NCBI GenBank assembly: GCA_903872035.1 | Contig: CAIQIZ010000018.1 | Location: 1 to 54,558, forward strand | Direction: 5' to 3' | DNA: 54,558 bases | From: an uncultured bacterium | GTDB taxonomy: Bacteria; Patescibacteriota; Minisyncoccia; Phycocordibacterales; PALSA-1337 | Part shown: positions 3,467 to 33,087 of the stretch, piece by piece | How positions within the stretch are numbered: position 1 is the first letter of the stretch | Layout of the letters: every line of letters begins with the position of its first letter | The notes under the pieces: model-generated | What the model saw: only the letters and a program-made list of their open reading frames with translations | The model's database searches: none | What the model was told of the DNA's origin: nothing | Position numbers and translations under genes: made by a program

Positions 3467-3791
3467 GGCCCCGTGTGGCGACGCTACCCAATGGAGTCGT
3501 TCGGGAGATAAATGCGGATACTTGGCCTTGTTTGAAACCGTATGTTTGTAAAGCATCTGGACTGATCTTGCTAGCCATCTCCAAGTATTGTCCATCGAGT
3601 TTGTCGACAGAAGCGGTCAAATCCGCCGTCTGCCCTTGGATAGATTCCAAAGCCACAGTCCGAGAAATGACATGGTAGACATTCATGGCATAGAGAAACA
3701 GAGTGAATACGCAGATGAATATCAAGGCTGTGTTGATCTGGCGGCTGTACATCTCTACTACCGTGTATGTTTGTGCAATGGCTTTGGTCAT
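3456..3791 (-). CDS. FtsL-like single-pass cell division protein
   Basis: TM followed by a short coiled coil, located between rsmH and ftsI. Confidence 0.6.
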   Translation of the reverse strand: MTKAIAQTYTVVEMYSRQINTALIFICVFTLFLYAMNVYHVISRTVALESIQGQTADLTASVDKLDGQYLEMASKISPDALQTYGFKQGQVSAFISRTTPLGSVATRGHEL

Positions 3792-4825
3792 ATTTTTTCG
3801 ATTATTCTTAACTTGGCACTCCTCGATCTTGGATTCTCGGCGATCTCCTGCGTACTCGGAGTGATCGGCTTTTTTGTTAATATTTTTGCTCCTTTCGATG
3901 CTTGTTGTTTATTAAAATCTTTGACTATGCGATCTTCTAAACTATGAAATGAGATGACTGCCATACGCCCGCGCTGATTCAATCTTTCATATCCCTTGCT
4001 CAAACCCTCCTTGAGCGCATTCAACTCGTCGTTCACTGCGATCCTTAATGCTTGAAATGTCTTTGTGGCCGGATTGACTTTTCCTCTCCTGTAAAATGCC
4101 GGCACTGACGTCTTCACGATCTCCACAAGTTCAAATGTTGTCTCTATTTTCTTCTTTGCCCTGTATTCGACTATGCCTTTGGCAATGCGCCTAGCGAATC
4201 TCTCCTCACCGTATCCGAAAATGACATCTGCTATAACATCCTCTTCCCATCCATTGACGATCTCCTTTGCAGTGAACGCATACTTGCTCGGTTCCCCTAG
4301 CGTCATAAGCAGCGGTTCGTCTTTCTGAAATGTGAATCCCCTTCCAGAATTATCTAATTCGTCAGAAGAAATTCCCAAATCTAGAAGAATCATGTCTACC
4401 CCTTTGATTCCGTGCTGATCGAGAATTTGATCAAGGTTCCGGAAGCTTTCAACTTCGAGGATTAATTTTCCTTGTTCCTGCTTGCTCCCGTCTCCTCGCT
4501 CCTTAAGTGTTTCCCGCGCCCTCTCTATGGCCTGCGAATCCCTGTCGAGCCCGATAACATTCAAAGTCGTTCGCGTCTCAGCTTCGAATGCCCTCTTTAA
4601 CGCCAAAGCATGTCCTGCCCCACCAAGAGTTCCGTCCAAGTACCATTTGTTTGATTCGGAGCGAGAACCTTTGTCGGTGACGGCGCTGTGGGCCAGCGAG
4701 GAACCGACAAAGGTTCTCGCTCCCATCAATGCTTCAACTACTTCATGTAAAAGAACTGGTACGTGGATGCTATTTCCCGAACCAATGCTAGTTTCCGTGA
4801 CCTGTCGCTCGCCGGTATCTGCCAT
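3788..4825 (-). CDS. rsmH: 16S rRNA m4C1402 methyltransferase, carrying two in-frame insertions
   Basis: HVPVLLHEV, DGTLGGAGH, DLGISS, ATKTFQALRIAVNDEL, ISFHSLEDRIVK and NPRSRSAKLR motifs. Confidence 0.96.
   Translation of the reverse strand: MADTGERQVTETSIGSGNSIHVPVLLHEVVEALMGARTFVGSSLAHSAVTDKGSRSESNKWYLDGTLGGAGHALALKRAFEAETRTTLNVIGLDRDSQAIERARETLKERGDGSKQEQGKLILEVESFRNLDQILDQHGIKGVDMILLDLGISSDELDNSGRGFTFQKDEPLLMTLGEPSKYAFTAKEIVNGWEEDVIADVIFGYGEERFARRIAKGIVEYRAKKKIETTFELVEIVKTSVPAFYRRGKVNPATKTFQALRIAVNDELNALKEGLSKGYERLNQRGRMAVISFHSLEDRIVKDFNKQQASKGAKILTKKPITPSTQEIAENPRSRSAKLRIIEKI
4468..4502 (-). repeat. Degenerate 7-bp array inside rsmH (GGAGCA family)
   Basis: Minus strand GGAGCGA GGAGACG GGAGCAA GCAGGAA CAAGGAA, translated as ERGDGSKQEQG. 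Confidence 0.55.
4658..4723. repeat. Palindromic element, copy 1 (in frame inside rsmH)
   Basis: Perfect 21-bp inverted arms (4658-4678 / 4703-4723) around core CGCTG-TGGGC-CAGCG (4684-4698); 66 nt in total. Confidence 0.9.
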
Positions 4826-5440: not shown

Positions 5441-5451
5441 TAAAAATGTGG

Positions 5452-6209
5452 AGGTCAGACCTATCCGACCAGATATAGGTCTGACCTAAATCTTCATAGT
5501 TTATTGAGACTTTTTTTATCCATTTTTGAATTATTTTTGAGAGTTTCTTCATCTCCATCGTGTATGATTGAAAGCATATGATTCCAGATATCTATTATCA
5601 CGTCTATAATCGAGGCGCGCATAAAGCCGACATATTTCTCGACGGTTCTGATTACGTTCGCATGCTCAAGCTGCTATACATCGCCAATAATGATGCGCCT
5701 TTTATCATGGAGCAACTTCCTGATAATATATTTGGGGTAAAAAGAAATAGGATTCTCGTTGATATAGTCGCATACTGCTTGATGCCAAATCATATTCATA
5801 TAGTGCTCAAGAAACGGTTACAGATTGAATCTTCTGCTGTCGATTCAATTGCACGTTTTATTCACAAACTAGCCACTGGATATACTGTATATTTTAATAA
5901 TAAATACGGACATTCTGGCACCATTTGGCAGGGCTCATATAAAGAAAAGATTGTTTATGATGGGCTATATATCCAAACATTGATCAAATACGTGCATTTA
6001 AACCCTCGTAGTTTAATAAATCCAGATATGTCAAAACCATCATGCGATAAGAACGATGCGGAAACCAATGAATTCGTAATGAAATACGAATATTCCAGTA
6101 TCAAAGACTACAATGGGATCATTCGCCCTCAAAGATCTATACTGAACGTCTCAGAATTGCTTCCTTTTCAAGTAGGTTAAACCAAAATCATGCATTATAG
6201 GTCTGACCT
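5452..6209 (+). mobile_element. RAYT locus: HUH Y1 transposase flanked by REP-like palindromes
   Basis: AGGTCAGACCTAT-N10-ATAGGTCTGACCT at 5452-5487 and TATAGGTCTGACCT at 6196-6209 flank the transposase gene. Confidence 0.8.
5578..6180 (+). CDS. REP-associated tyrosine transposase (RAYT, IS200/IS605 Y1 superfamily)
   Basis: YHVYNRG, YCLMPNHIH (HUH), catalytic YVHLNP and YEYSS motifs. Confidence 0.9.
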   Translation: MIPDIYYHVYNRGAHKADIFLDGSDYVRMLKLLYIANNDAPFIMEQLPDNIFGVKRNRILVDIVAYCLMPNHIHIVLKKRLQIESSAVDSIARFIHKLATGYTVYFNNKYGHSGTIWQGSYKEKIVYDGLYIQTLIKYVHLNPRSLINPDMSKPSCDKNDAETNEFVMKYEYSSIKDYNGIIRPQRSILNVSELLPFQVG

Positions 6210-12530: not shown

Positions 12531-12602
12531 GACGCATAGAAAGAATATACCGTCTTGCCGCTGGCCCACAGCGCTCAAACCGATATATTCTTTCTATGCG
12601 TC
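12531..12602. repeat. Palindromic element, copy 2 (intergenic, smc-mreB)
   Basis: Perfect 19-bp arms (12531-12549 / 12584-12602) around core CGCTG-GCCCA-CAGCG (12559-12573). Confidence 0.9.
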
Positions 12603-12613
12603 AATCAAAATTT

Positions 12614-14995
12614 CTATTTCGCCACCGCCACTGCTTCTTCGAAGGCGATCGAAAGCAGCTTGGAGGCGCCGTCAGAGCCCATGGTCACGCCATACAAGAC
12701 GCCGGCACGAGACATGGTCTCGCGGTTATGGGTGATGAGAATGAGTTGTGAGCGCTTGGAAAGATTTTCGATCATATCGCCATACTTCTTAGAATTGGCT
12801 TCGTCCAATGCCGCATCTGTTTCATCGAGAATGATGAATGGCGGCGGATTGACTTGAGAGACAGCAAATAGAAGCGCTATTGAAGTAAGGGCACGTTCGC
12901 CGCCGGAAAGCATCATGAGCCCTTTGACTTTCTTACGCGGCAAACTGATGTTGACATCGAGACCTTCTGGACCTTCTTCGACATTAGCAAATCCGAACCC
13001 AGAGTCGCTGAAATCTTCTCCGTCGCGTCGCTGGCCCACAGCGCCCGCGCCAGAGAAGATCTCATCGCCTCCAGAAAGTGCTTCGCTTAATTCTTCCCCG
13101 TCGCTCTTTTTTCTTCGCTTTGCTTCTCGGACCACTGTAAGTTCCGCTTTTCCGCCCCCAAACATCAGGGTAAAGAATTTTTGGAATTCGGTGTTAATTT
13201 TCAATATTCCGCTCTTGAATTCAAAATCAATTCGCTGATCCAACTCGGCGATCAGTTTGATGAGTTCGGCTTTGGCTTTTTCCAGATCCTCGAGCTCTTT
13301 CATGAGGAAGCTGTCGCGCTCCTCCGTTTCTTTGTATTCCTTCAAGACCTCTGCCCCACCGCTACCACCGGCATCTTCTAGGCGAATCTTATTCTTCTCT
13401 ATTTTTCTTCTGCGTTCTTCTTGGGCTGAACGTGAAGCAACGGCGCCGTCAGATCGCACTCCGGTTTGCCGCTGGCCCACAGCGCTCAAACCAGAGTGCG
13501 ATTCTCCGGCGCCTGTGACTTCGTTGTACTCCACCGCCTCTCTTCCTACGATTATTCCAGCCTCCCCAAGGTCATGTTTGAAGTTCTCCTCTTCATGAGC
13601 AAGCATATTCATGGCCGTCGTCAGATTGGCAACCACGTTCCGGATCTCATTCTGCCTAGCAATGATCTTGAAGACATCCTTTTCCGCTTCGCGGTTGGTG
13701 TCCTTCTCCTTCTCTATGGTCGACTTCAATTCCTCATATTCGCGGACGTATTTCAATTCATTTTCCACAGCACTCTTAAGTTTACTCTCGAATTCCGATC
13801 GCTCGCGTGAAAGAACCTCGATTTCCTTTTCCGCTTCGCTAATCAATGCCGAATCACTCACCGCTTTGTGGCGAGCAATAAATCCTCGTAAAGCTCCGAC
13901 AACTTCACTGAAAAGCTTTCTGACATCTTCTATCGTCCGCATCCCTTCTATAGATTGCACTACTTCCTCGACATCTTTCAAACGGACCATCTTCAATTCT
14001 TCATTTTTTATCCTAGCCTCTTCCTTCATAATGGCACGCCTATCAGCATTGATCTCGCCTTCAAGCCTTCCTAACTCGCGAGTAATAGAATCCTTCTCGC
14101 TCCGGCATTGCTTCAATCTCTCTTCAAGGGAAATGACCTTGTCACTCTTTGTGTCTTTATTCTTGGAATCAGTCAGGATCTTCTTTGCCTGTTCCAATTG
14201 ATGATCAAGCTCGGCTAATTCCTTTTTGGGCCCAGCAATCTCGGCTGACAGGCGCTGCTTTTCAGTCTGAATGTAAAACTCCTCAATGGCAAAATATTCT
14301 TTGTATAAAAGAATCAATTCTTTTCGGAGCTCTTCGGCCTTCTCAACTTTTTCAACTTGTTTTTTCAGGAAGCGAATATGTGGCGCGATCTCACGTCGGA
14401 GCGATTCTACCTGCTTCATATTCTCGTCGGTCCGCTCTAATTTCCGCAAGCTTTCCAATTTCTTCCATTGATAGATCTTCAAACCGAGCGCATCTTCTAT
14501 CATTTCCCTTCTTTCGCGAATAGAAGCCGAAAGAATGCGATCAGCTTCTCCTTGTGAAATGATATGATGCCCAGTTGCGCCGATATGTGCGCTAGCCAAA
14601 AGCTCCACGATGTCTTTCAAGCGGACTTGGCTACCATTCAATAAGTACTCATTGGAATTGTCGCGATGTACGACGCGCTCCAGAGAGACCTCGTCGAAAT
14701 CGATCGACGGGAACAATTTTTGGGAATTATCAAAAACAACTTTAACGCTAGCTCGATTGGCTCTGCCAGCTGACGAGGCAGATTCGCCGCCGCCATTCCA
14801 GATCATATCTTCACCTCTTTTACCGCGTAATGATTTGATTGATTGTTCGCCGAGCACAAAACGAAATGCTTCAGCTGTGTTGGACTTTCCTGAGCCATTG
14901 GGTCCAACAACGCCGGTTATAGCGCTGGTGAATTGTAGGCTGGCTTTCTTGGCAAATGATTTGAAGCCGGATAATTCCAGAGATTTGAGATACAT
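12614..14995 (-). CDS. smc: Short SMC-family ATPase (about 790 aa, no recognisable hinge)
   Basis: MYLKSLELSGFKSF start (moved to 14995), GPNGSGKSN Walker A, LSGGE signature, ILDETDAALD Walker B. Confidence 0.85.
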   Translation of the reverse strand: MYLKSLELSGFKSFAKKASLQFTSAITGVVGPNGSGKSNTAEAFRFVLGEQSIKSLRGKRGEDMIWNGGGESASSAGRANRASVKVVFDNSQKLFPSIDFDEVSLERVVHRDNSNEYLLNGSQVRLKDIVELLASAHIGATGHHIISQGEADRILSASIRERREMIEDALGLKIYQWKKLESLRKLERTDENMKQVESLRREIAPHIRFLKKQVEKVEKAEELRKELILLYKEYFAIEEFYIQTEKQRLSAEIAGPKKELAELDHQLEQAKKILTDSKNKDTKSDKVISLEERLKQCRSEKDSITRELGRLEGEINADRRAIMKEEARIKNEELKMVRLKDVEEVVQSIEGMRTIEDVRKLFSEVVGALRGFIARHKAVSDSALISEAEKEIEVLSRERSEFESKLKSAVENELKYVREYEELKSTIEKEKDTNREAEKDVFKIIARQNEIRNVVANLTTAMNMLAHEEENFKHDLGEAGIIVGREAVEYNEVTGAGESHSGLSAVGQRQTGVRSDGAVASRSAQEERRRKIEKNKIRLEDAGGSGGAEVLKEYKETEERDSFLMKELEDLEKAKAELIKLIAELDQRIDFEFKSGILKINTEFQKFFTLMFGGGKAELTVVREAKRRKKSDGEELSEALSGGDEIFSGAGAVGQRRDGEDFSDSGFGFANVEEGPEGLDVNISLPRKKVKGLMMLSGGERALTSIALLFAVSQVNPPPFIILDETDAALDEANSKKYGDMIENLSKRSQLILITHNRETMSRAGVLYGVTMGSDGASKLLSIAFEEAVAVAK
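13013..13060. repeat. Palindromic element, copy 3 (in frame inside smc)
   Basis: ATCTTCTC/GAGAAGAT outer arms, core at 13029-13043; translated as ...GAVGQRRD... Confidence 0.8.
13442..13513. repeat. Palindromic element, copy 4 (in frame inside smc)
   Basis: Nested arms GGCGCCG/CGGCGCC, ATCGCACTC/GAGTGCGAT and GGTTTG/CAAACC around the core at 13470-13484; 27 nt identical to copy 2. Confidence 0.88.
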
Positions 14996-18263: not shown

Positions 18264-18345
18264 GCCGGGGTGGCGAAATTGGTAGACGCGCTAGCCTTAG
18301 GAGCTAGTGGAGCAATCTATGGAGGTTCGAGTCCTCTCCCCGGCA
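18264..18345 (+). tRNA. tRNA-Leu(TAG)
   Basis: GCCGGGG/CCCCGGC acceptor stem, CT-TAG-GA loop, long variable arm, GGTTCGAGTCC T-arm. Confidence 0.95.
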
Positions 18346-18680
18346 CAATGATCCACGAGAAAGCCTGAATGGCTTTCGAGTGGAGTATCATTGTGACTGG
18401 GGAAGGACGAGAAAGCCGGAACGAGCGAGTCCAGCAGGACGAGCCGTGAGGCGGGGTCGCGACCGAGCGAGACTGGTCTCGCGAGAGTCGTGACCGAGTC
18501 CTCTCCCCGGCACAATGATCCACGAGAAAGCCTGAATGGCTTTCGAGTGGAGCATCACTGTGACTGGGGAAGGACGAGAAAGCCGGAACGAGCGAGTCCA
18601 GTAGGACGAGCCGTGAGGCGGGGTCGCGACCGAGTCCTCTCCCCGGCACAATGATCCATGAGGACGCCTAAATGGCGTCC
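18329..18680 (+). repeat. Tandem hairpin repeats beginning with the tRNA-Leu 3' end
   Basis: GAGTCCTCTCCCCGGCACAATGATCCA at 18329, 18496 and 18632; units of 167 and 136 bp, each folding back on itself. Confidence 0.92.
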
Positions 18681-18693
18681 GAATGCATAAGGA

Positions 18694-18722
18694 TTGACAA
18701 TCTTAGCAATTCGTGCTAGCCT
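18694..18722 (+). promoter_or_regulatory. Sigma70-type promoter
   Basis: TTGACA-N17-TAGCCT with extended TG. Confidence 0.65.
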
Positions 18723-18894
18723 TATTTCTGGAACCAGATACTCGACTATTGTGTCTACGCCAAAAGCGTTTACGCGACAGAAGAGCATTTGAAATAGCCA
18801 GAGCTTCGCTCTGCGCACGGTAATCACACCAGGCATCGATCGATGTCGTTCCAAACAACACGGAAAACAAACGGAAAAATGAAAGAATAAGAGA

Positions 18895-19770
18895 ATGAAC
18901 ACACAAGAAGCAGTAGTTGGAACAACAGTAGTCCCCGAGCCCGTTGCAACCGCAACAGCTCCGGACCAAAGCACGGCCACCGCAGTGGCCACCTCGACTT
19001 CCACCTCAACCCAGCCGGAAAAGCCCAGGGTGGAGGTCGTGGAAGAGTTCATCCGCCCCAAAAACATGACGGATGAGGCGCACAACTGGATGGTGAACCC
19101 GAACAGTATCGAGCTCGCCGGCGATGCACCCTACCGTTTCCTCGGATGGGATATTGTCGCGAGACTGAAGCTGATCAAGAAGTCTCCCCTCGCAATCGAG
19201 GATGTTAAATGTCTGGTAATGCCAGACGGGGACCAGGTGAAGTGCGACAGCACCAAGGGAATCTTCCAGCCGGTCAAATACTGGCCGCATGTCTCCCCGG
19301 AAACGGAGGCTGCCCTGAAGTCGGGCGCGACGATCGGGCAGATAACGCTGCCTGAGTACAATGGCGCATTCTTCGTTGATCACAACAAGCAGGAAGTCTT
19401 CGCTGTCTCCGGATGCAAGTTCGGCAAGTTCGGTAAGGACTTCTGCTACGGCAGTTGGCTTTACAAAGCTGCCGTAAAGCGGGCGCTTTCGCGCGTCATC
19501 GCACGTGGCGAGTCCTGGAACGAAACGCCAGAACGTGATCGGGTTCTTTGGGGCTTGGATTATCAAACGCAGTTGGATTTCCTCTCCCAAAGGAAGCAGG
19601 AGCGCCTAGTCCGCAAGGAACGGGAAGCGGCGCTCGACGAGCGCTTCGGCCTCAAGCCTCGTGGTGACCGCCGGAATGGTGGCCGCGACAGCGAACACGA
19701 GAACGGGCGTTACCGTGGCCAGCATAACAGCCGCTCCCAAGAGAAACGCAAGGTCTTCGCTGACCTATAA
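18895..19770 (+). CDS. Hypothetical protein (Thr/Ala-rich N-terminus, Arg-rich C-terminus)
   Basis: 291-aa ORF with its own promoter and terminator. Confidence 0.75.
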   Translation: MNTQEAVVGTTVVPEPVATATAPDQSTATAVATSTSTSTQPEKPRVEVVEEFIRPKNMTDEAHNWMVNPNSIELAGDAPYRFLGWDIVARLKLIKKSPLAIEDVKCLVMPDGDQVKCDSTKGIFQPVKYWPHVSPETEAALKSGATIGQITLPEYNGAFFVDHNKQEVFAVSGCKFGKFGKDFCYGSWLYKAAVKRALSRVIARGESWNETPERDRVLWGLDYQTQLDFLSQRKQERLVRKEREAALDERFGLKPRGDRRNGGRDSEHENGRYRGQHNSRSQEKRKVFADL

Positions 19771-19805
19771 GCAAAGCAGCGAAACGGCTTTAAGCCGAAT
19801 CAATC

Positions 19806-19855
19806 ACCCCATCAGCAATGATGGGGTTGACTTTTTATACAGAATGATATATAAT
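19806..19855 (+). terminator. Terminator overlapping the -35 of the next promoter
   Basis: ACCCCATC/GATGGGGT stem plus T run; TTGACT(19827)-N17-TATAAT(19850). Confidence 0.75.
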
Positions 19856-19941
19856 ACGTGATAGTCCGTTTTACGAATGAAATATAGTTGAAAACAAGGG
19901 CCGCAAGCGATTGCGGCCACAACCAAAGAAAGAGCTAGAAA

Positions 19942-21666
19942 ATGAATGCATTAGTGTTGAAAGGTTTGAAACAGTTAGGCGATTGGTCCGTAGGATGGGA
20001 TCCTACGCCTGAGGCAACGGGCTACGGGCGTCGATATTTCGACTCCCAAGGCAACGACTTCGGGCCGGCCAAGTTCGGCCCGGATACGAATCTAAACATG
20101 GCGGCCCTCAAGGGAAACCCAGGCGAGTATTTCATGCTCGTCGTCCCGATGAAGGACGCTGAGCAGGGCAAACCGTCAGCTGCGAAGCTGACGGTAACAC
20201 CGGAGAAAATCGCAACCTTCGAAATCTTGAGCGAGGCCGAAGCGGCCGAACTCAAGATGGCGGATGAAGCTCCCGCGAGCCCGCCGCCAACGAATCAACC
20301 GGCACCGACCGTGCCTCCCGCGACTCAGCCTCCGACGACGTCACCCGCTAATACGGGAACGCCGACAGTGGTAAATCAACCGCAACCGACCAATCAGGGT
20401 CCCGCGGCTCCTACTGCGACACAGCCTCCGACGACGCAGCCCAATGTGGGAACTACGGCGCCGGCACCTACGAATCCGCCTCAGGCACAAACTCCTCCGG
20501 CACCAGCCACTCCCCCATTAGGAAGTGACTTGAATGCTTTCATGCGAAAGTTGCATGACATGCACCTGACGATGGGCGACGGGCTCGGCGTAGTGGCAAC
20601 TGTTGCCAATAACGTCGGGGCACAGGTCGTTACTGGCCTGAACACCTTGAACACGAGCATGACCACCGGTCATGCCCAAATTCTCGACGCGATCAGGCAA
20701 ATCAGGCCGTCGGCTCCTACTCAGGGAACACCGGCACCGACCGTGCCTCCCGCGACTCAGCCTCCGACCGCGCCGCCAATCAATCAGCCTCCGACCAATC
20801 AGGGACAGCCTACGGGAAATCAACCGCCGGCCGACCGGAAGGGTTGGGTGTACTGGATTGTAATTGGTGTACTAGCGGCGTTAGCACTGGCAGCACTTGC
20901 ATTTTGGGGGTATCCATACCTCTCGAAGCACCTGCCGCATACGGCACCAGATATTACGGCCAACACAACAAATGGTTCGACTGGGAATGCTCTTCCCATC
21001 CCGAGTGGGTTCAGTCCGGTAATATCGAACAACAGTAATTGTAATATTCAGGTGGTTAGCTGCTCAGGCGGCACACCACCGAATATTACGATCACGCCGG
21101 TATTGCCGATGAATCCGCCACCTTCAACGGTCGTGACGACTCCGGCACCGAACGTGTACGTGAACATAACGAACACGTATATGTACCCGACACTTCCGAC
21201 GATGCAACCGCAAGCATCGGAAGCGCCTGCAGCACAACAAGCACCTACAGCACAAGCACCGACGCCGCCAGCGCCAACACAAGCACAAACCACTTCGAAC
21301 TGGGCACCGCAGTCATCTGCAGAGCAAGTTCCGTGGCTTGAGAACCTTCCAGCATCTCAGGGCGAACTGGTAGTCAATGGACCTCGCCCTGAAGCCAATG
21401 GCGACTGGTGCAGCGGCTACTATATCGGATCAAGCGGAAGGTGGTACTGGACGGACACTCAAGGTGTCTTCCATCCCTTCCGAACCAATCATCGCCGCGA
21501 AGAGCTCGGCTACGGACAGTGCCGACAGCCTGAGGTACGGAGAGTGGAAACACGGACGAAGCAGGTAAATCTGATCGTCTGGAAAAGCAGGACTGAGGTG
21601 AGGAGAGAATCTCCGCCTCAACCTTGTCCTCCTCCCCGCTGCGCACCCTACGGCTACAGACCGTAA
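19942..21666 (+). CDS. Pro/Thr/Gln-rich single-pass membrane protein
   Basis: 574 aa; PT-rich repeats with a 39-bp exact duplicate (20298-20336 = 20730-20768); central TM WVYWIVIGVLAALALAALAFW. Confidence 0.8.
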   Translation: MNALVLKGLKQLGDWSVGWDPTPEATGYGRRYFDSQGNDFGPAKFGPDTNLNMAALKGNPGEYFMLVVPMKDAEQGKPSAAKLTVTPEKIATFEILSEAEAAELKMADEAPASPPPTNQPAPTVPPATQPPTTSPANTGTPTVVNQPQPTNQGPAAPTATQPPTTQPNVGTTAPAPTNPPQAQTPPAPATPPLGSDLNAFMRKLHDMHLTMGDGLGVVATVANNVGAQVVTGLNTLNTSMTTGHAQILDAIRQIRPSAPTQGTPAPTVPPATQPPTAPPINQPPTNQGQPTGNQPPADRKGWVYWIVIGVLAALALAALAFWGYPYLSKHLPHTAPDITANTTNGSTGNALPIPSGFSPVISNNSNCNIQVVSCSGGTPPNITITPVLPMNPPPSTVVTTPAPNVYVNITNTYMYPTLPTMQPQASEAPAAQQAPTAQAPTPPAPTQAQTTSNWAPQSSAEQVPWLENLPASQGELVVNGPRPEANGDWCSGYYIGSSGRWYWTDTQGVFHPFRTNHRREELGYGQCRQPEVRRVETRTKQVNLIVWKSRTEVRRESPPQPCPPPRCAPYGYRP

Positions 21667-21686
21667 TGAACATTGGACAGTTTCAC

Positions 21687-21722
21687 AGGTTCCCAGCAAC
21701 GCGTTGTTGCTGGGGCCTTTTC
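21687..21722 (+). terminator. Intrinsic terminator
   Basis: CCCAGCAAC/GTTGCTGGG stem plus T5. Confidence 0.75.
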
Positions 21723-21781
21723 TTATACATAAGTGCTGCAAATGCTAGAAAATTGGCCGTATAGTCACATTTGACAACCTA

Positions 21782-21810
21782 TTGACTTTTGTTCCCTAAT
21801 GTGCTAAACT
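21782..21810 (+). promoter_or_regulatory. Sigma70-type promoter
   Basis: TTGACT-N17-TAAACT with extended TG. Confidence 0.65.
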
Positions 21811-21920
21811 TTACTCAGAACGTGATTCTTCGTTAAGAGTGCACGTTGTCAATTTCATAATAAGAAACAATAAAACCAGGGCTTCCCTACCGGGCGGTCC
21901 TACAAAATGAAGGAAACAGC

Positions 21921-23072
21921 ATGAGAGCAAGTGATCAGATAAAGTCGGCCATTACGGATATTCTAAGAATCCCCGTTTGGCTGGTAACCAAAATTTGGAT
22001 GTTACCAGGGTCGTTGCTAAGCCAAGTTGGCCTAGCACAAAACCGGATTACCGGAACGATCGGGTTCACCTATACTGTCATGATCGCTGGAGGGACCTTC
22101 CTCCTCGTCACTGGCAATATGGAAACCGGGTTCGCAGGTGTCATCCTAGCATCCTTAGCCGTCATCGGCATCACCAAAGGGCTAAAAACCTTTGACCCTC
22201 CCACGGAGGGAATCCTCATGATCTGGAATCGGATCCTGACGGACAAAAAAGGAAACACATCGACCGTTAAAGGTACGACCCTCTTGGCCAACTTCTGGCC
22301 ATTTCTGATCAATGCGAGACCGGTGGACATGACTCGCAAAGAATGGAAATTCGAAATGAAGATTCAATCAGAAAGAGTCGTGCTGCCGAGCGGTCAGGTA
22401 CTACCGTCCATTCCAGTCAAGGGTGTCATCGAGATGACAGCTTTCCCGCTTCGGACAAAAATGATGGATTACATCGCATCCGGCGGACTGGATAACATAT
22501 ACAAGGATATGGGCAAGATCCCATATCAAGTCGTTCAGGCTGCTGTCACAGAACATAAGTTGTCCTACATGGACATGGCTCAATACAGCACAAAACTGGC
22601 AGAGCTTGTCGACGATCACCTGAACGGAACAGCGACGTCCGATGGATGCTTCAAGGAGAAGCGATACGGAGTAGAAACTAGTAATGTTAGAGCCGACTTC
22701 CCTATTCCACCCGAGATCGAGAAGACTATGATCGAATCCGCCAGCGTCATATACGAAAATGATGCTCGGAAGGAAGAGTATAAGGGAGACATCGAGGCTA
22801 TCACCCAGTTCAAAGCACTGGGGCTAGACCCTGAGAAAGCGTCTAACGCTTACTCTGAAGCTCGCCTTATACGAGACGGTCTCGTACATCGCGTACAAGT
22901 CGAAGGTAAGGGTACCTCCATCGGAGGCGCCATTATCTTACGGGACATGCAAGTCTTCCCTGGTGGAAACCAGGGTGGACAAAACCAAGGTCGAGGCGGT
23001 CGACGAAATCGGCGCCAAAACCGGCAAGGTCAAGGTCAGCAAGATCAAGATCAAAGCCAAAACCAAACGTAA
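21921..23072 (+). CDS. Membrane protein with a probable divergent SPFH/band-7 domain
   Basis: N-terminal TMs, then a G-x-LM-x-W-x-R...P-F-L-I...VDM pattern, a helical region and a Gln/Arg/Gly-rich tail. Confidence 0.55.
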   Translation: MRASDQIKSAITDILRIPVWLVTKIWMLPGSLLSQVGLAQNRITGTIGFTYTVMIAGGTFLLVTGNMETGFAGVILASLAVIGITKGLKTFDPPTEGILMIWNRILTDKKGNTSTVKGTTLLANFWPFLINARPVDMTRKEWKFEMKIQSERVVLPSGQVLPSIPVKGVIEMTAFPLRTKMMDYIASGGLDNIYKDMGKIPYQVVQAAVTEHKLSYMDMAQYSTKLAELVDDHLNGTATSDGCFKEKRYGVETSNVRADFPIPPEIEKTMIESASVIYENDARKEEYKGDIEAITQFKALGLDPEKASNAYSEARLIRDGLVHRVQVEGKGTSIGGAIILRDMQVFPGGNQGGQNQGRGGRRNRRQNRQGQGQQDQDQSQNQT

Positions 23073-23102
23073 CAACAGAAAACAATAGAAAGAAATACCC
23101 TT

Positions 23103-23609
23103 ATGGCAGAAAAGACAGAGAAGTCAGAGAAGTCGACGGAATCAAAAGAATACTCGCCGTTCAAGATAATCATGGTTCTAGTGCTTGCCTTTGTGGCGAT
23201 CCACATCTACCGCAACCGGGCCAGCTTACAAGCAGGTCCGGAGGAGCACGTAGGGAGCCAAGCGCAACAGCAACCACAACCCCTACCAACGTTCGAACAT
23301 CCGGCGTACATCCGGATAACGACAGAGGGTTGGGACCAGGCAATACCTGTTCCCAATCTCGGAAGACGGGTAGAGGCTCGTATAGTAACGCGAGGCATCT
23401 GGTGGCAAGTGCGTCCAGACATGGACGACAGTAGGGCCTCAAAGCCTCTCCCGCCGATCCCAGATGGTCCGACTCATATCGTATACCAAGCGCCACCTGG
23501 AGGAGGCTCACAAGTCCAGCAATGGAGGGTCTGGCCAACGCAGGGAGCACCGACCGAGGGTCAGGTCATGTACTGGTACACAAACAACGTGACGATAGTG
23601 TCACGGTAG
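23103..23609 (+). CDS. Single-pass membrane protein, hypothetical
   Basis: TM near the N-terminus and a Trp-rich beta-like C-terminal domain; co-oriented with the SPFH-like gene. Confidence 0.7.
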   Translation: MAEKTEKSEKSTESKEYSPFKIIMVLVLAFVAIHIYRNRASLQAGPEEHVGSQAQQQPQPLPTFEHPAYIRITTEGWDQAIPVPNLGRRVEARIVTRGIWWQVRPDMDDSRASKPLPPIPDGPTHIVYQAPPGGGSQVQQWRVWPTQGAPTEGQVMYWYTNNVTIVSR

Positions 23610-24503: not shown

Positions 24504-24860
24504 CTAGTTATGGTTGATAAAATTGGCATTAGGGAAACCGTTAGTATTGGTTGGCGTTGTGTAATCCGTGGCAAAGGTGTTGAGTAGGATGTTTACCAAG
24601 CCCCAAATGGACACGATTATGGCCAAACCGACGATACCCCACATTATCCTCATACCAGCTTCCCTTCTACCTTCACCAGAGTCTCCCATCATGATGTATT
24701 GCACCGTCGCCCAAACGATATAGACGACTGCCAATGCTACCAACAAATAAACGACCACGTTGCCTATGCTGGCGATCCGATCGACTAAGTCGTTAGCATT
24801 ATCGATCTGCGACAATGGTCCGGTTTGGGCCTGTGCTATGGAATATAGGATATTGGTCAT
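24504..24860 (-). CDS. VirB2/TrbC-like pilin
   Basis: IMWGIVGLAIIVSIWGLVNIL; close paralog of 24011-24412. Confidence 0.85.
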   Translation of the reverse strand: MTNILYSIAQAQTGPLSQIDNANDLVDRIASIGNVVVYLLVALAVVYIVWATVQYIMMGDSGEGRREAGMRIMWGIVGLAIIVSIWGLVNILLNTFATDYTTPTNTNGFPNANFINHN

Positions 24861-24883
24861 ATTAATGATTGATTATCTAAATA

Positions 24884-25243
24884 TTATTGCGGAAAAATGT
24901 TGGAGAAGCTCGTCCACGTACCGGCCGAATTCTGGCCTAAATCAAAAGTAGACATAAGGATATTGACGATCCCCCATAAGGAAAAGATCACAAAGAATCC
25001 GATCACGCTCCACATGACGTACTGGCCTCCTTCGCTACGTCCCTTCTCGCTCGGTCGCATGAAATATTGGATGACATACCAGACGAACATGACGACAGCC
25101 AGACCCATCAAGAGATCCAGAGCGTCGTTAATATATATAGCGGCTGTTCCGACCAGGTCATGCAAAGTCTTGGAGCTCGCGGCAAAAGCGACGAATGGCA
25201 TGAAGGTCGAGCTCGCGACAAGTAGCTGGCTGATTTTTTTCAT
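24884..25243 (-). CDS. VirB2/TrbC-like pilin
   Basis: Signal peptide; VMWSVIGFFVIFSLWGIVNIL. Confidence 0.85.
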   Translation of the reverse strand: MKKISQLLVASSTFMPFVAFAASSKTLHDLVGTAAIYINDALDLLMGLAVVMFVWYVIQYFMRPSEKGRSEGGQYVMWSVIGFFVIFSLWGIVNILMSTFDLGQNSAGTWTSFSNIFPQ

Positions 25244-25310
25244 GTTTGATGATTTGTTAATGAATATTTTGCGTAAATTCCTAATTGCCTAAATCCTAAC
25301 CTCCTAGTCC

Positions 25311-26123
25311 CTAATTTCCTCCCGAATTAGCGCTCCTAGCCTGTTGAATGACATTTTGATTGACCGCGCCGGTAGATGCCAAAGTATTGATCACTACATC
25401 TACAATGACTCTGGCTCCGATCACGATAGCGATACCGACTACCAACCACAGAAACCTCTCATGGAGTTCTTTGATCTTAGTCGAATTACCCATGGCGGTG
25501 ATGTACTGGAAACCGGTGAATATAATCATGAGGACAGCGAATAAGATGACGATGTAGGCAAAAATCTGCACGAAATTCTGCACTAATTGTCCGATAGAGT
25601 TTATGCCGCCTCCATTTAGCGGATTTGTCAGTCTATTGACGCCCCCATTGCTAGAATTTGATCCGTTCCCTGTTGAACCGCTTGCAGGAGAGCCGTTCCC
25701 AGTAGATCCGGAGGCAGGAGAGCCATTACCGGTACTTCCGGTGTTACTTCCCCACCAGGTACTGTTGGAATTAGCATTGGAATTGGCGCCGCTTGCCCCA
25801 GATGTACCGCTATTTCCGGCATTGCTGGGGGCATTACCTGAACTCGCAGCTGTTCCCGCCGAAACATTGCTACTAGTGAGACATGATTGATTATCGCTAG
25901 TAACTCCGTAAGGACAGCAGTCACCTGCAGCATCTACAGTCCCATTACAAAAACCTCCAAATGTATATCCGGAATTCCCCGAGTTGTTTTGATCCGGAGG
26001 AGCATCCAAACTTTGAGCATATACAGTCACATTTGTCTTGTATAAGGCCGCGATCATTAATATGAGCACGGACACCGATACTATCAACTGCATTCTATAT
26101 CTTTGTTGTATATTTGCATTCAT
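25311..26123 (-). CDS. Pilin-like protein with a Gly/Ser/Asn-rich repeat extension
   Basis: Cys-containing N-domain, GSTGNGSPAS repeats, LTNPL followed by a two-TM pilin domain. Confidence 0.8.
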   Translation of the reverse strand: MNANIQQRYRMQLIVSVSVLILMIAALYKTNVTVYAQSLDAPPDQNNSGNSGYTFGGFCNGTVDAAGDCCPYGVTSDNQSCLTSSNVSAGTAASSGNAPSNAGNSGTSGASGANSNANSNSTWWGSNTGSTGNGSPASGSTGNGSPASGSTGNGSNSSNGGVNRLTNPLNGGGINSIGQLVQNFVQIFAYIVILFAVLMIIFTGFQYITAMGNSTKIKELHERFLWLVVGIAIVIGARVIVDVVINTLASTGAVNQNVIQQARSANSGGN

Positions 26124-26133
26124 GATCTTATTA

Positions 26134-26667
26134 CTAACTTCCTAAAAGGTAACTGAATCCGGAATTTTGGCCGGTCAGCCAGCTCAATATCTGATAAACG
26201 ATGAACCAGGCTGTAAGCATTATTATAAACCCAATGAACAGTTTCCAAAATATGTCTTTGGCTTTGTTGATGTTGGCTTCCTTACCAGAGATATATAGGA
26301 ATCCCGCATAACAAAAACCGGCGATAGCCACCAGAACTCCAGCGATGATGGCGATGTTGATGAAGTGCTGGATCTGCATCATCGCACCGTTGAAGTCGCA
26401 GGGTATATATCCTTGTGGGTTCGTTTTTGTCTCGATTTGTTGGCCGTTCCATGTCATTTTGATTGGAGTGGTCAGATGTGAAAGATCTGGCCCATCGCAT
26501 ATCATCAACCTGAATCCGCTGCTATTTATATTCTCTGAATCCGCTGGGGGCGTCGCAGCTTGAGCTTGAGCGATGATCGGGGCCAATGAATACAGGCAAC
26601 TGAATATCGCTAGGCACACCAACATTGGCGCGAGCAATTTTCTGAATTTTAATGTATCGGTAATCAT
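26134..26667 (-). CDS. VirB2/TrbC-like pilin with a Cys-bridged N-terminal loop
   Basis: LMICDG...IPCDF, two TMs, FIIMLTAWFIVYQI. Confidence 0.8.
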   Translation of the reverse strand: MITDTLKFRKLLAPMLVCLAIFSCLYSLAPIIAQAQAATPPADSENINSSGFRLMICDGPDLSHLTTPIKMTWNGQQIETKTNPQGYIPCDFNGAMMQIQHFINIAIIAGVLVAIAGFCYAGFLYISGKEANINKAKDIFWKLFIGFIIMLTAWFIVYQILSWLTGQNSGFSYLLGS

Positions 26668-32810: not shown

Positions 32811-32945
32811 GATGAGAATACTGTAGCAAAAATTTTTGGCGTATGCCAGTAATTCACAATCAATTAATGAGACGGGTAATTCCGGGTCAATTTGAGTAAA
32901 TTCAAAGAAATTTTGAGTTGGGGGGTATTACTTATCGAATGAACA

Positions 32946-33087
32946 CACTTTAGTTGACTAAAGTCAGATCTCTCAAAAAACGTCTCAAAAGAATCATCTG
33001 CGACTTTAGTTGACTAAAGTGCGCTCCGGCGAAACAGACTACCCCCCGGCTCGCGATTGTGAAAGTGGCGGATTTTCCGCCACTTTC
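32946..33087. repeat. REP-like palindrome cluster upstream of rpsA
   Basis: ACTTTAGT-TG-ACTAAAGT at 32947-32964 and 33003-33020; GAAAGTGGCGGA-TTT-TCCGCCACTTTC at 33061-33087. Confidence 0.8.

Follow-up and report, generated by a model that had tools for sequence, protein, structure and literature searches.

The smc-like gene of an uncultured Patescibacteria bacterium carries two long hairpins within its coding sequence, and both end in the same short tip, which is translated as AVGQR. This raises the question of whether these stretches belong to the SMC-like protein or whether a repeat has entered the gene twice, as an initial annotation of the locus had proposed, and in what way its copies come about. 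The DNA examined, referred to here as the window, is a stretch of 54.6 kb. A 16-nt tip, CGCTGGCCCACAGCGC, is identical in four hairpins of the window: one in the methyltransferase gene rsmH (copy A), one in the spacer between smc and mreB (copy B) and two in smc itself (copies C and D). We read the smc hairpins, with a probability of roughly 0.6, as independent insertions of a low-copy palindrome resembling repetitive extragenic palindromes (REPs) in tolerant loops, the apex of the element having been copied and the stem remodelled at the target. The hairpins and their host genes are as follows.

12614-14995, minus strand: smc-like gene encoding 793 aa; SMC_N/AAA domains by Pfam, hinge domain lacking
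13442-13513, plus strand: hairpin copy D, 72 nt, 27-nt arms that are 81% complementary, tip at 13470-13484; in frame in smc, encoding GAGESHSGLSAVGQRQTGVRSDGA
~13002-13071, plus strand: hairpin copy C, tip at 13029-13043, imperfect 22-26-nt arms; in smc, encoding GGDEIFSGAGAVGQRRD
12531-12602, plus strand: hairpin copy B, located between smc and mreB; 72 nt in length, its basal stem perfect over 19 bp
3788-4825, minus strand: rsmH (MraW methyltransferase; PF01795, E = 2.9e-95), the host of copy A
4658-4723, minus strand: hairpin copy A, 66 nt in length, its stem perfect over 21 bp; within the reading frame of rsmH, read in sense direction and encoding GARTFVGSSLAHSAVTDKGSRS

We found the 15-mer CGCTGGCCCACAGCG at four positions of the window (minus strand: 4684-4698; plus strand: 12559, 13029 and 13470), compared to 0.07 occurrences expected from shuffled sequences, and none of 100 shuffles reached four. 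This 15-mer is itself a mini-hairpin (CGCTG / GCCCA / CAGCG) and forms the tip of a long hairpin in all four copies. When folded as single-stranded DNA, the four hairpins reach -17.7 to -34.6 kcal/mol with z-scores of -4.1 to -9.9. Copy B, which lies 12 nt past the smc stop codon, and copy D have 27 nt of the apex in common. The two smc copies are unlike in their basal stem and in the helix below the tip, the imperfect arms of copy C reaching from 13002/13006 to 13067/13071. Copies C and D are read antisense in one common frame, giving AVGQR, and copy A is read in sense direction, giving LAHSA; this agrees with the opposite orientation of the smc and rsmH copies that had been noted earlier. 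An assembly artefact is ruled out by six independent freshwater/lake metagenome runs, in which the same 1.3 kb is found at 98-100% of the sampled words, and by an ENA contig that is identical.

We compared the region to its closest relative (P0002, DNA L121), which shows 84% protein identity for the SMC-like protein and 75% nucleotide identity over smc. L121 contains neither of the smc hairpins nor the spacer hairpin; the rsmH hairpin is present. At site D the window has a net gain of 72 nt, and the GGCGCC that flanks copy D at each end is found only once in L121. At site C the net gain is 51 nt and corresponds to the block 13022-13072, with a junction that is ambiguous over 4 nt (GGAG). The smc-mreB spacer measures 121 nt in the window versus 24 nt in L121. 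Copy A has its orthologue at L121 19521-19586, where stem and tip are each ~80% identical to the window and the loop reads GATCGA versus GGCCCA in the window. Since copy A is orthologous in L121 and the sites of B, C and D are empty there, copy A is old, whereas B, C and D arose after the split from the L121 lineage. The hairpin of copy A was detected in none of 80 further rsmH loci of related genomes, and the tip family is missing from the genomes of the next relatives P0003 and P0004.

Judging from these alignments, the two smc hairpins are independent, lineage-specific insertions. This agrees with the proposal of the initial annotation: empty sites are found at the protein level and at the DNA level, and the stems of the two copies differ. 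The lengths it gave for the two copies, 48 and 72 nt, hold for copy D with its 72 nt; copy C is not a clean 48-nt unit, as its net insertion comprises 51 nt. Lengths divisible by three had been described for all four copies. This is no property of the element, copy B being intergenic; divisibility by three is a survivorship condition of any insertion in an intact gene.

The family is not restricted to the window. When contigs of four metagenome runs were aligned to the region, further copies from the same organism became apparent: no fewer than four other contigs of equal depth contain the 34-35 nt centre of copy D (13458-13492) with one mismatch at most, each time with different flanks. Assemblies often break at the D-type centre. 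The depth in the bin of the D centre is 6.4x the baseline, which suggests about six D-type copies per genome, and the A-type tip and stem are single-copy. We estimate the total copy number at ~6-10 per genome, corresponding to a low-copy, non-autonomous palindromic repeat. In addition, a metagenome scan with a 22-mer revealed three genuine loci in related organisms (46-50% GC):

tsaD gene: in frame, antisense, encoding the peptide SDLSAVGQRQSGN
gene of a 950-aa ATPase: in frame, antisense, encoding the peptide SDLSAVGQRQSGT
class-I methyltransferase gene (L164): in frame, sense, with a compensated top helix CGCCG..CGGCG

Among the intragenic copies, the four antisense ones are all read in a single frame. 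The centre has five open frames out of six, and the frame used, which gives SGLSAVGQRQTG, is the sole open frame without Cys, Trp, Phe or Pro. Scans of 185,579 species-representative genomes (GTDB) for the 22-mer and for two degenerate patterns gave no member of the family, and no match in Patescibacteria; a scan of species-representative genomes with the 15-mer of the tip was swamped by chance matches from high-GC genomes. Likewise, the family was not found in IMG/VR, and a concatenated 63-aa peptide query yielded no match at E <=10 among 5.8 billion proteins.

These results bear on an alternative in which the peptides are native SMC sequence or the hairpins were made on the spot by template switching without any mobile element. 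Template switching can make hairpins de novo (PMC8794818), and the two loops vary by nature and contain many Gly, Ser and acidic residues. However, the AVGQR peptides are present in none of the 23 homologues in a 24-sequence SMC alignment, so that they are not the conserved SMC sequence that had been considered as the counter-explanation from the beginning. Moreover, an identical apex of 16-35 nt in at least ten unrelated contexts cannot arise independently. Native SMC sequence is refuted by the homologues, the repeat statistics and the empty sites in L121, and an origin without a mobile element by the common apex. We consider this explanation hardly credible in either form.

Even with the two insertions the smc-like ORF (open reading frame) remains intact. 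Homologues of the SMC-like protein number in the thousands in Patescibacteria (Paceibacterota, Parcubacteria, Taylorbacteria) and mostly measure 750-770 aa, and sites C and D are the two most length-variable regions of the 24-sequence alignment. An AlphaFold2 model based on the SMC alignment was of moderate quality (mean predicted local distance difference test score, pLDDT, 63) with confident long helices. In this model both sites are predicted to be non-helical with pLDDT below 50. Insert D (residues ~493-516) is located within the sole non-helical low-confidence stretch, 483-521, between the helices 383-482 and 522-612, and this stretch is predicted to form the apex of an antiparallel coiled coil, the usual position of the hinge. 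Insert C (residues ~641-660) is located in a disordered acidic linker (640-681) before a strand of the head domain, in the C-terminal head region. The initial annotation had placed both inserts in breaks of the coiled coil, which applies to D at the predicted apex and not to C in its head linker. Its view of the loops as permissive sites is supported by the length variation of the alignment columns, by the low pLDDT and by the presence of other palindromes at the same loops.

Concerning the latter, other lineages show unrelated palindromic repeats at the same positions of the SMC-like protein. In L355 (smc of P0069) site D contains a head-to-head pair of another CGTC-type REP, composed of CGTCCCTGCGAAGGCAGGGATCCAG, a spacer and an inverted copy, which encodes the peptides PAKAGIQ / LDPRLRG. 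The loop homologous to site C in the same gene encodes EGAVGRGQGAYEV...STLHPTPS from G-rich and C-rich inverted segments, and there appears to be a palindromic insert there too. The loops of rsmH and tsaD are short and 'empty' in most relatives and contain unrelated palindromic inserts in several, for instance TCCAAGGTCGGACCTTGGA, present twice in the rsmH gene of L169, and a hairpin of another kind, 90 nt long, in the tsaD gene of L352. Two further SMC homologues (P0051 and P0103) reach ~1,340 aa and contain intein and homing-endonuclease domains (PF14528, PF14890), hence the smc-like gene hosts inteins too in some lineages.

The smc copies persist as tolerated passengers and not as functional SMC sequence. 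Their persistence would be due to their landing in disordered, hypervariable loops of an otherwise highly conserved protein, to a gain in length that is a multiple of three and to a stop-free frame that gives the small polar peptide SGLSAVGQRQTG.

Three of the four window copies are located within 911 nt in the same orientation (P = 0.003 for random placement). Two further contigs of the same depth carry paired tips, in one case 530 nt apart in the same orientation and in the other ~650 nt apart in opposite orientations. From the cluster in the window and the two contigs with paired tips it follows that the family generates its new copies locally. As to the local hopping that had been suggested for smc, the clustering is real, and transposition as its cause is what we infer from it.

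In order to compare the architecture of the copies we anchored eight of them on the tip and aligned them without gaps, with the right arm shifted by one base to account for a conserved 1x2 internal loop. At positions 2-26 of the eight copies 168 of 200 cells are paired, compared to 67-89 of 200 in shifted registers. Conservation of the sequence ends at position 9, and the columns beyond show three to four pair types (positions 10-18). The paired length amounts to ~25-27 positions in six of the eight copies. With ~8 full copies readable these stem statistics are thin. The conserved module comprises ~35 nt and can be written as (C)CG-N-Y / TTGC / C / CGCTG-GCCCA-CAGCG / CY / (G)CAA / ACC(A): a CGTC-like tag, a stem of 9-10 bp with the 1x2 internal loop, the top helix with a 5-nt loop, and a CCA-like tail. 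Below this apex a further paired stem of ~17 bp follows in seven of the eight copies, and its sequence is specific to the locus. The outer arms are wholly different between copies and do not contain conserved terminal inverted repeats.

CGTC-tagged REPs have been described as units with a terminal CGTC and an 8-9 bp stem, the first two pairs being A-T; the loop comprises 4-5 nt, the tail has 3 nt near CCA, and variants of the tag are allowed in this description (PMC3733652). By its sequence, the 34-35 nt apex looks like such a unit. The loop measures 5 nt in all copies. The pairs TT..AA are found in B, D, L162 and L164a and are absent from C and L164b; the CCA tail is present in C and D and absent from B and L162. 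As variants of the tag we observed CGGT in D and CGCT in L162 and L164a, and in copy A CGTC is located on the other side of the tip.

A conserved loop on top of free stems is the usual pattern of hairpins that are recognised by proteins. The apex could accordingly be a functional structured motif, i.e. a binding or processing site in RNA or single-stranded DNA for a host protein, with stems that need only pair. Conservation of the loop and top helix is accompanied by covariation of the stems, including the compensated top helix in L164. All copies are located in transcribed regions of housekeeping genes (smc, rsmH, tsaD) or just past a stop codon, and the peptide of the tsaD copy, DLSAVGQRQ, is kept in a relative with 77% protein identity. 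On the other hand, no hairpin matches an Rfam covariance model (only three tRNAs match in the window), and a terminator-like tail is missing. The family is absent from close relatives that have the same genes and had no match among the 185,579 species-representative genomes, and the loop sequence is lost in the rsmH orthologue of the sister species. Copies are oriented both with and against transcription, which speaks against an RNA motif, and the placement in disordered loops together with the clustering looks like survivorship of insertions. A host function of this kind therefore seems improbable to us.

We next turn to the locus-specific stems, starting from copy C. Its arm 13006-13022 encodes DGEDFSD and aligns with the native SEDLRD codons of L121 at 20 of 30 positions. 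The same arm matches an adjacent conserved native motif (13084-13100) at 14 of 17 positions, which is the sole match with at most three mismatches in the window besides the arm's own partner arm, and L121 carries the same tandem motif without a hairpin. Based on the gain of only 51 nt, the alignment of the arm with the L121 codons and the hairpin-free tandem motif, one arm of copy C is native, and the inserted block consists of the apex and an inverted copy of the neighbouring native arm. For copy A, hairpin-less relatives have GKG.. or ..GRT.. codons that resemble one or the other arm, which is at most suggestive.

The window also contains a gene whose product could act on the hairpins in trans and resembles the REP-associated tyrosine transposases (RAYTs).

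5578-6180, plus strand: RAYT-like HUH Y1 transposase gene (PF01797, E = 2.3e-7, above cut-off)
5453-5464, 5475-5486 and 6197-6208, flanks of the Y1 gene: palindrome ATAGGTCTGACC, as an inverted pair upstream and one copy downstream

The Y1 protein contains the motifs HIH and YVHLNP. Its gene is located ~7 kb from the smc hairpins; the nearest copy of the tip is the one in rsmH, 855 nt away. The gene is syntenic between aspS and mraZ in L121 and two further relatives (L187, L171), a pattern that is typical of domesticated RAYTs. The layout of the Y1 gene and its ATAGGTCTGACC palindromes (5449-5490, 6197-6208) resembles a REPtron, and relatives of this palindrome are what spreads in other genomes. 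Related AGGTCNGACCT or CCGAGGTGCAACCTCGG palindromes adjoin the Y1 gene or are located in rsmH in other genomes (e.g. L169 3047-3104). Some RAYTs recognise specific positions of the loop (PMC8266576), and loop-reading RAYTs of this type would fit the conserved apex.

Taken together, our reading draws on the repeat family, the empty sites, the tolerance of the loops, the conserved apex with variable paired stems, the clustering and the native arm at site C as observations, and adds to them the copying mechanism and the enzyme, which we infer. New copies would arise near old ones via a single-stranded DNA hairpin intermediate at the replication fork. Of this intermediate the apex alone would be copied faithfully. 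At the target a new basal stem would be made, through fold-back copying of the adjoining sequence or through template switching for which partial homology to the donor stem serves as a guide. The apex would probably be the site that is recognised by an HUH-type enzyme. In its strictest form, with the 35-nt apex as the sole heritable part and a stem built from the target at each new site, the mechanism is a tentative proposal that may well not hold. If true, it would explain the locus-specific paired stems, the gain of the apex plus one arm, and the appearance of new copies within ~0.5 kb of old ones. It would constitute a mode of insertion not described for REPs, MITEs (miniature transposable elements with inverted repeats) or insertion sequences of the IS200/IS605 group, and would time and again add new peptide loops to essential proteins in genomes of reduced size.

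Several findings weigh against the insertion of copied apices with remodelled stems. Copy D gained the full 72 nt, to which a native arm does not fit. The GGCGCC around this copy is duplicated like a 6-bp target-site duplication, and no such duplication is evident at copies A and B. The similarity between the arms of copy D and flanking or native sequence is marginal (p 0.015 to 0.88) and not significant. Furthermore, the A-type stem GCGAGA.CCTTTG.CG occurs in two genes of two organisms, in the rsmH copy and in the methyltransferase copy of L164, so stems are heritable at least in part. CGTC is exact in just three of the eight copies (B, C and L164b), and the small number of readable copies limits what can be said about the stems. 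No polymorphic empty site was found in the six metagenome runs at the level of contigs, from which rare variants are dropped. RNA runs were searched as well, and none contains the region. With regard to the enzyme, the Y1 protein scores 38 bits with the NCBIfam model REP_Tyr_transpos, below the cut-off of 80, and has no sequence match in the PDB. The flanks of its gene hold AGGTCNGACCT-type palindromes and no copy of the tip family, and the sister species L121 has the gene yet no young copies of the tip family. Because of the different flanking palindrome and the situation in L121, the Y1 protein is only a lead as the candidate trans-acting enzyme for the hairpins.

The duplicated GGCGCC and the recurring A-type stem would be expected if the whole hairpin of 66-72 nt were transposed by an apex-reading transposase, with copies so old that their arms have drifted and pairing that is kept by quasipalindrome template switching. 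The length of the element is fairly constant (~25-27 paired positions in six of eight copies), copy D has GGCGCC at both ends versus one at the empty site, and A-type stems are found in two different genes. Drift had time to act, as the compared species are 25% diverged in nucleotides, and the orthologous rsmH copy has retained its stem over that divergence; template switching is known to keep stems perfect (PMC8794818). Nevertheless, at least five copies in one genome are 97-100% identical over the 34-nt centre and have unrelated outer stems. Neutral drift cannot scramble 17 bp and yet spare the adjoining 35 nt, unless all copies are selected. The tip of the rsmH orthologue has diverged as fast as the stem (~80% each), so the tip is not intrinsically protected. 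In addition, copy C gained only 51 nt and has one native arm. Transposition of the entire element is thus rather unlikely in our view. Local homology-guided copying, in which the apex would be copied faithfully and the stem would derive in part from the target and in part from the donor, would reconcile these observations.

Other identities of the hairpins were considered and rejected. The apex with its GTTTG...CAAAC is superficially like a repeat of the CRISPR type (clustered regularly interspaced short palindromic repeats); the spacings of 441-470 nt and the intragenic copies rule this out. A role of copy B as a terminator was dismissed, with neither a T-run nor a terminator-like site after the hairpin. 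The idea of a phage-matching guide was also discarded: IMG/VR contains no exact match to the tip or to either of the perfect stems. A target motif TTGAT as in ISDra2 is found in 5 of 16 flanks, three of these 6-7 nt from the hairpin, which is not significant after correction for the 1,024 pentamers and the positions tried.

Some further features of the window were noticed in the course of the analysis. An ORF at 19942-21666 contains a hairpin (21035-21095) with a 17-bp stem and a 27-nt loop; this hairpin has no relation to the tip family and could be a further palindrome within a gene. A stretch of 40 nt at 18649-18688 is 87.5% identical to L162 4305-4344, outside any gene the two have in common, and may be another short shared repeat. 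At 32915-33052 there is an intergenic pair of ACTTTAGTTGACTAAAGT motifs ~60 nt apart, each a 7-bp inverted repeat around TTGA. This stretch is 79% identical over 97 nt to the intergenic region L164 4465-4556 with different flanking genes, and the pair may represent a shared operator/promoter or another small repeat family. In the region 18264-23609, four ORFs without Pfam match are located beside a tRNA gene (18264-18345), the 3' end of which recurs as an inverted repeat (18326-18413); these ORFs have a GC content of 0.51-0.55 versus ~0.46 and an AT skew of +0.15 to +0.21. An integrated element is one possible reading of the region, a block of genes for surface proteins another. Four small ORFs in a row at 24504-26667 belong, by their Pfam matches, to PF18895, the TrbC/VirB2-like pilin family of the type IV secretion system (T4SS), and the tip-hosting 950-aa ATPase of L164 may belong to a similar secretion system.

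In-frame palindromic repeats in tolerant protein loops are a known class of event in Rickettsia and a few other bacteria. New are the host phylum and the architecture, i.e. a single REP-like apex, locus-specific paired stems, tight clustering and the lack of a cognate flanking transposase. As far as our literature search shows, intragenic palindromic repeats have not been described in Patescibacteria (candidate phyla radiation, CPR), whose small genomes are thought to carry few repeats. In this clade one or two loops each of the SMC-like protein, RsmH and TsaD repeatedly take up palindromes of different families. Such inserts explain much of the length variation of these proteins, they will confuse gene callers, alignments and structure prediction, and they are a source of new surface peptides. 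The dissemination of REPs is still unsolved (PMC8266576), and the conserved apex, the locus-specific stems and the local clustering make it testable in a simple, low-copy system.

Among known systems, classical MITEs (Correia, ERIC, Nezha and others) are alike in being short, non-autonomous and hairpin-forming and in their ability to fuse in frame with ORFs. They have conserved terminal inverted repeats and variable centres, whereas the element described here shows the reverse. Rickettsia palindromic elements (RPE), reportedly described by Ogata et al. in 2000, are alike in their behaviour: a selfish palindrome is located in frame in unrelated housekeeping genes at positions compatible with the fold, and the repeat encodes a peptide. 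RPE differ in that they measure ~100-150 bp, are conserved over their full length and occur in Rickettsia in dozens of copies (for a review see PMC10969869), while the elements here comprise 51-72 nt with the apex alone being conserved. Judged by size and host, membership in an RPE family is unlikely.

REPINs and their RAYTs (PMC3337134, PMC8266576) offer a parallel in the single-copy, vertically inherited and syntenic HUH Y1 gene in the genome, in the hairpin repeats and in some RAYTs reading the loop. Here, however, the Y1 gene is flanked by the AGGTCNGACCT palindrome and GTAG is absent. Unlike a REPIN, which consists of two inverted REPs around a spacer, each hairpin contains one apex unit and its arms are unique. 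Template-switch mutations (PMC8794818, PMC8604942) likewise create an inverted copy beside its source, give perfect stems and act locally. Template switching alone does not explain the common 35-nt apex, for which copying of a repeat unit is needed as well.

The REPs of the CGTC/GTAG type differ from the hairpins in that they have unrelated flanks or form head-to-head dimers, whereas here a single unit is located on top of a longer hairpin, the lower ~17 bp of which are locus-specific. The low copy number, the tag variants (CGGT, CGCT), the Patescibacteria host and the new sequence of loop and stem are further differences. In other respects they are alike in full or in part: both have a short palindromic unit, the 5-nt loop of the hairpins is within the range of REPs, and the exact CGTC tag, the two A-T pairs at the start of the 9-bp stem and the CCA tail are each present in some of the copies. 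Both have copies in ORFs, at times twice in one ORF, and a flanking transposase of its own is lacking for the CGTC type. REPs within genes have been reported, in some cases as two units in a single ORF, many of these ORFs being genes for DNA maintenance or RNA modification (PMC3733652). The Rickettsia elements RPE-4 and RPE-6 are themselves CGTC REPs, and CGTC REPs in general lack a dedicated flanking transposase (Di Nocera et al. 2013, PMC3733652).

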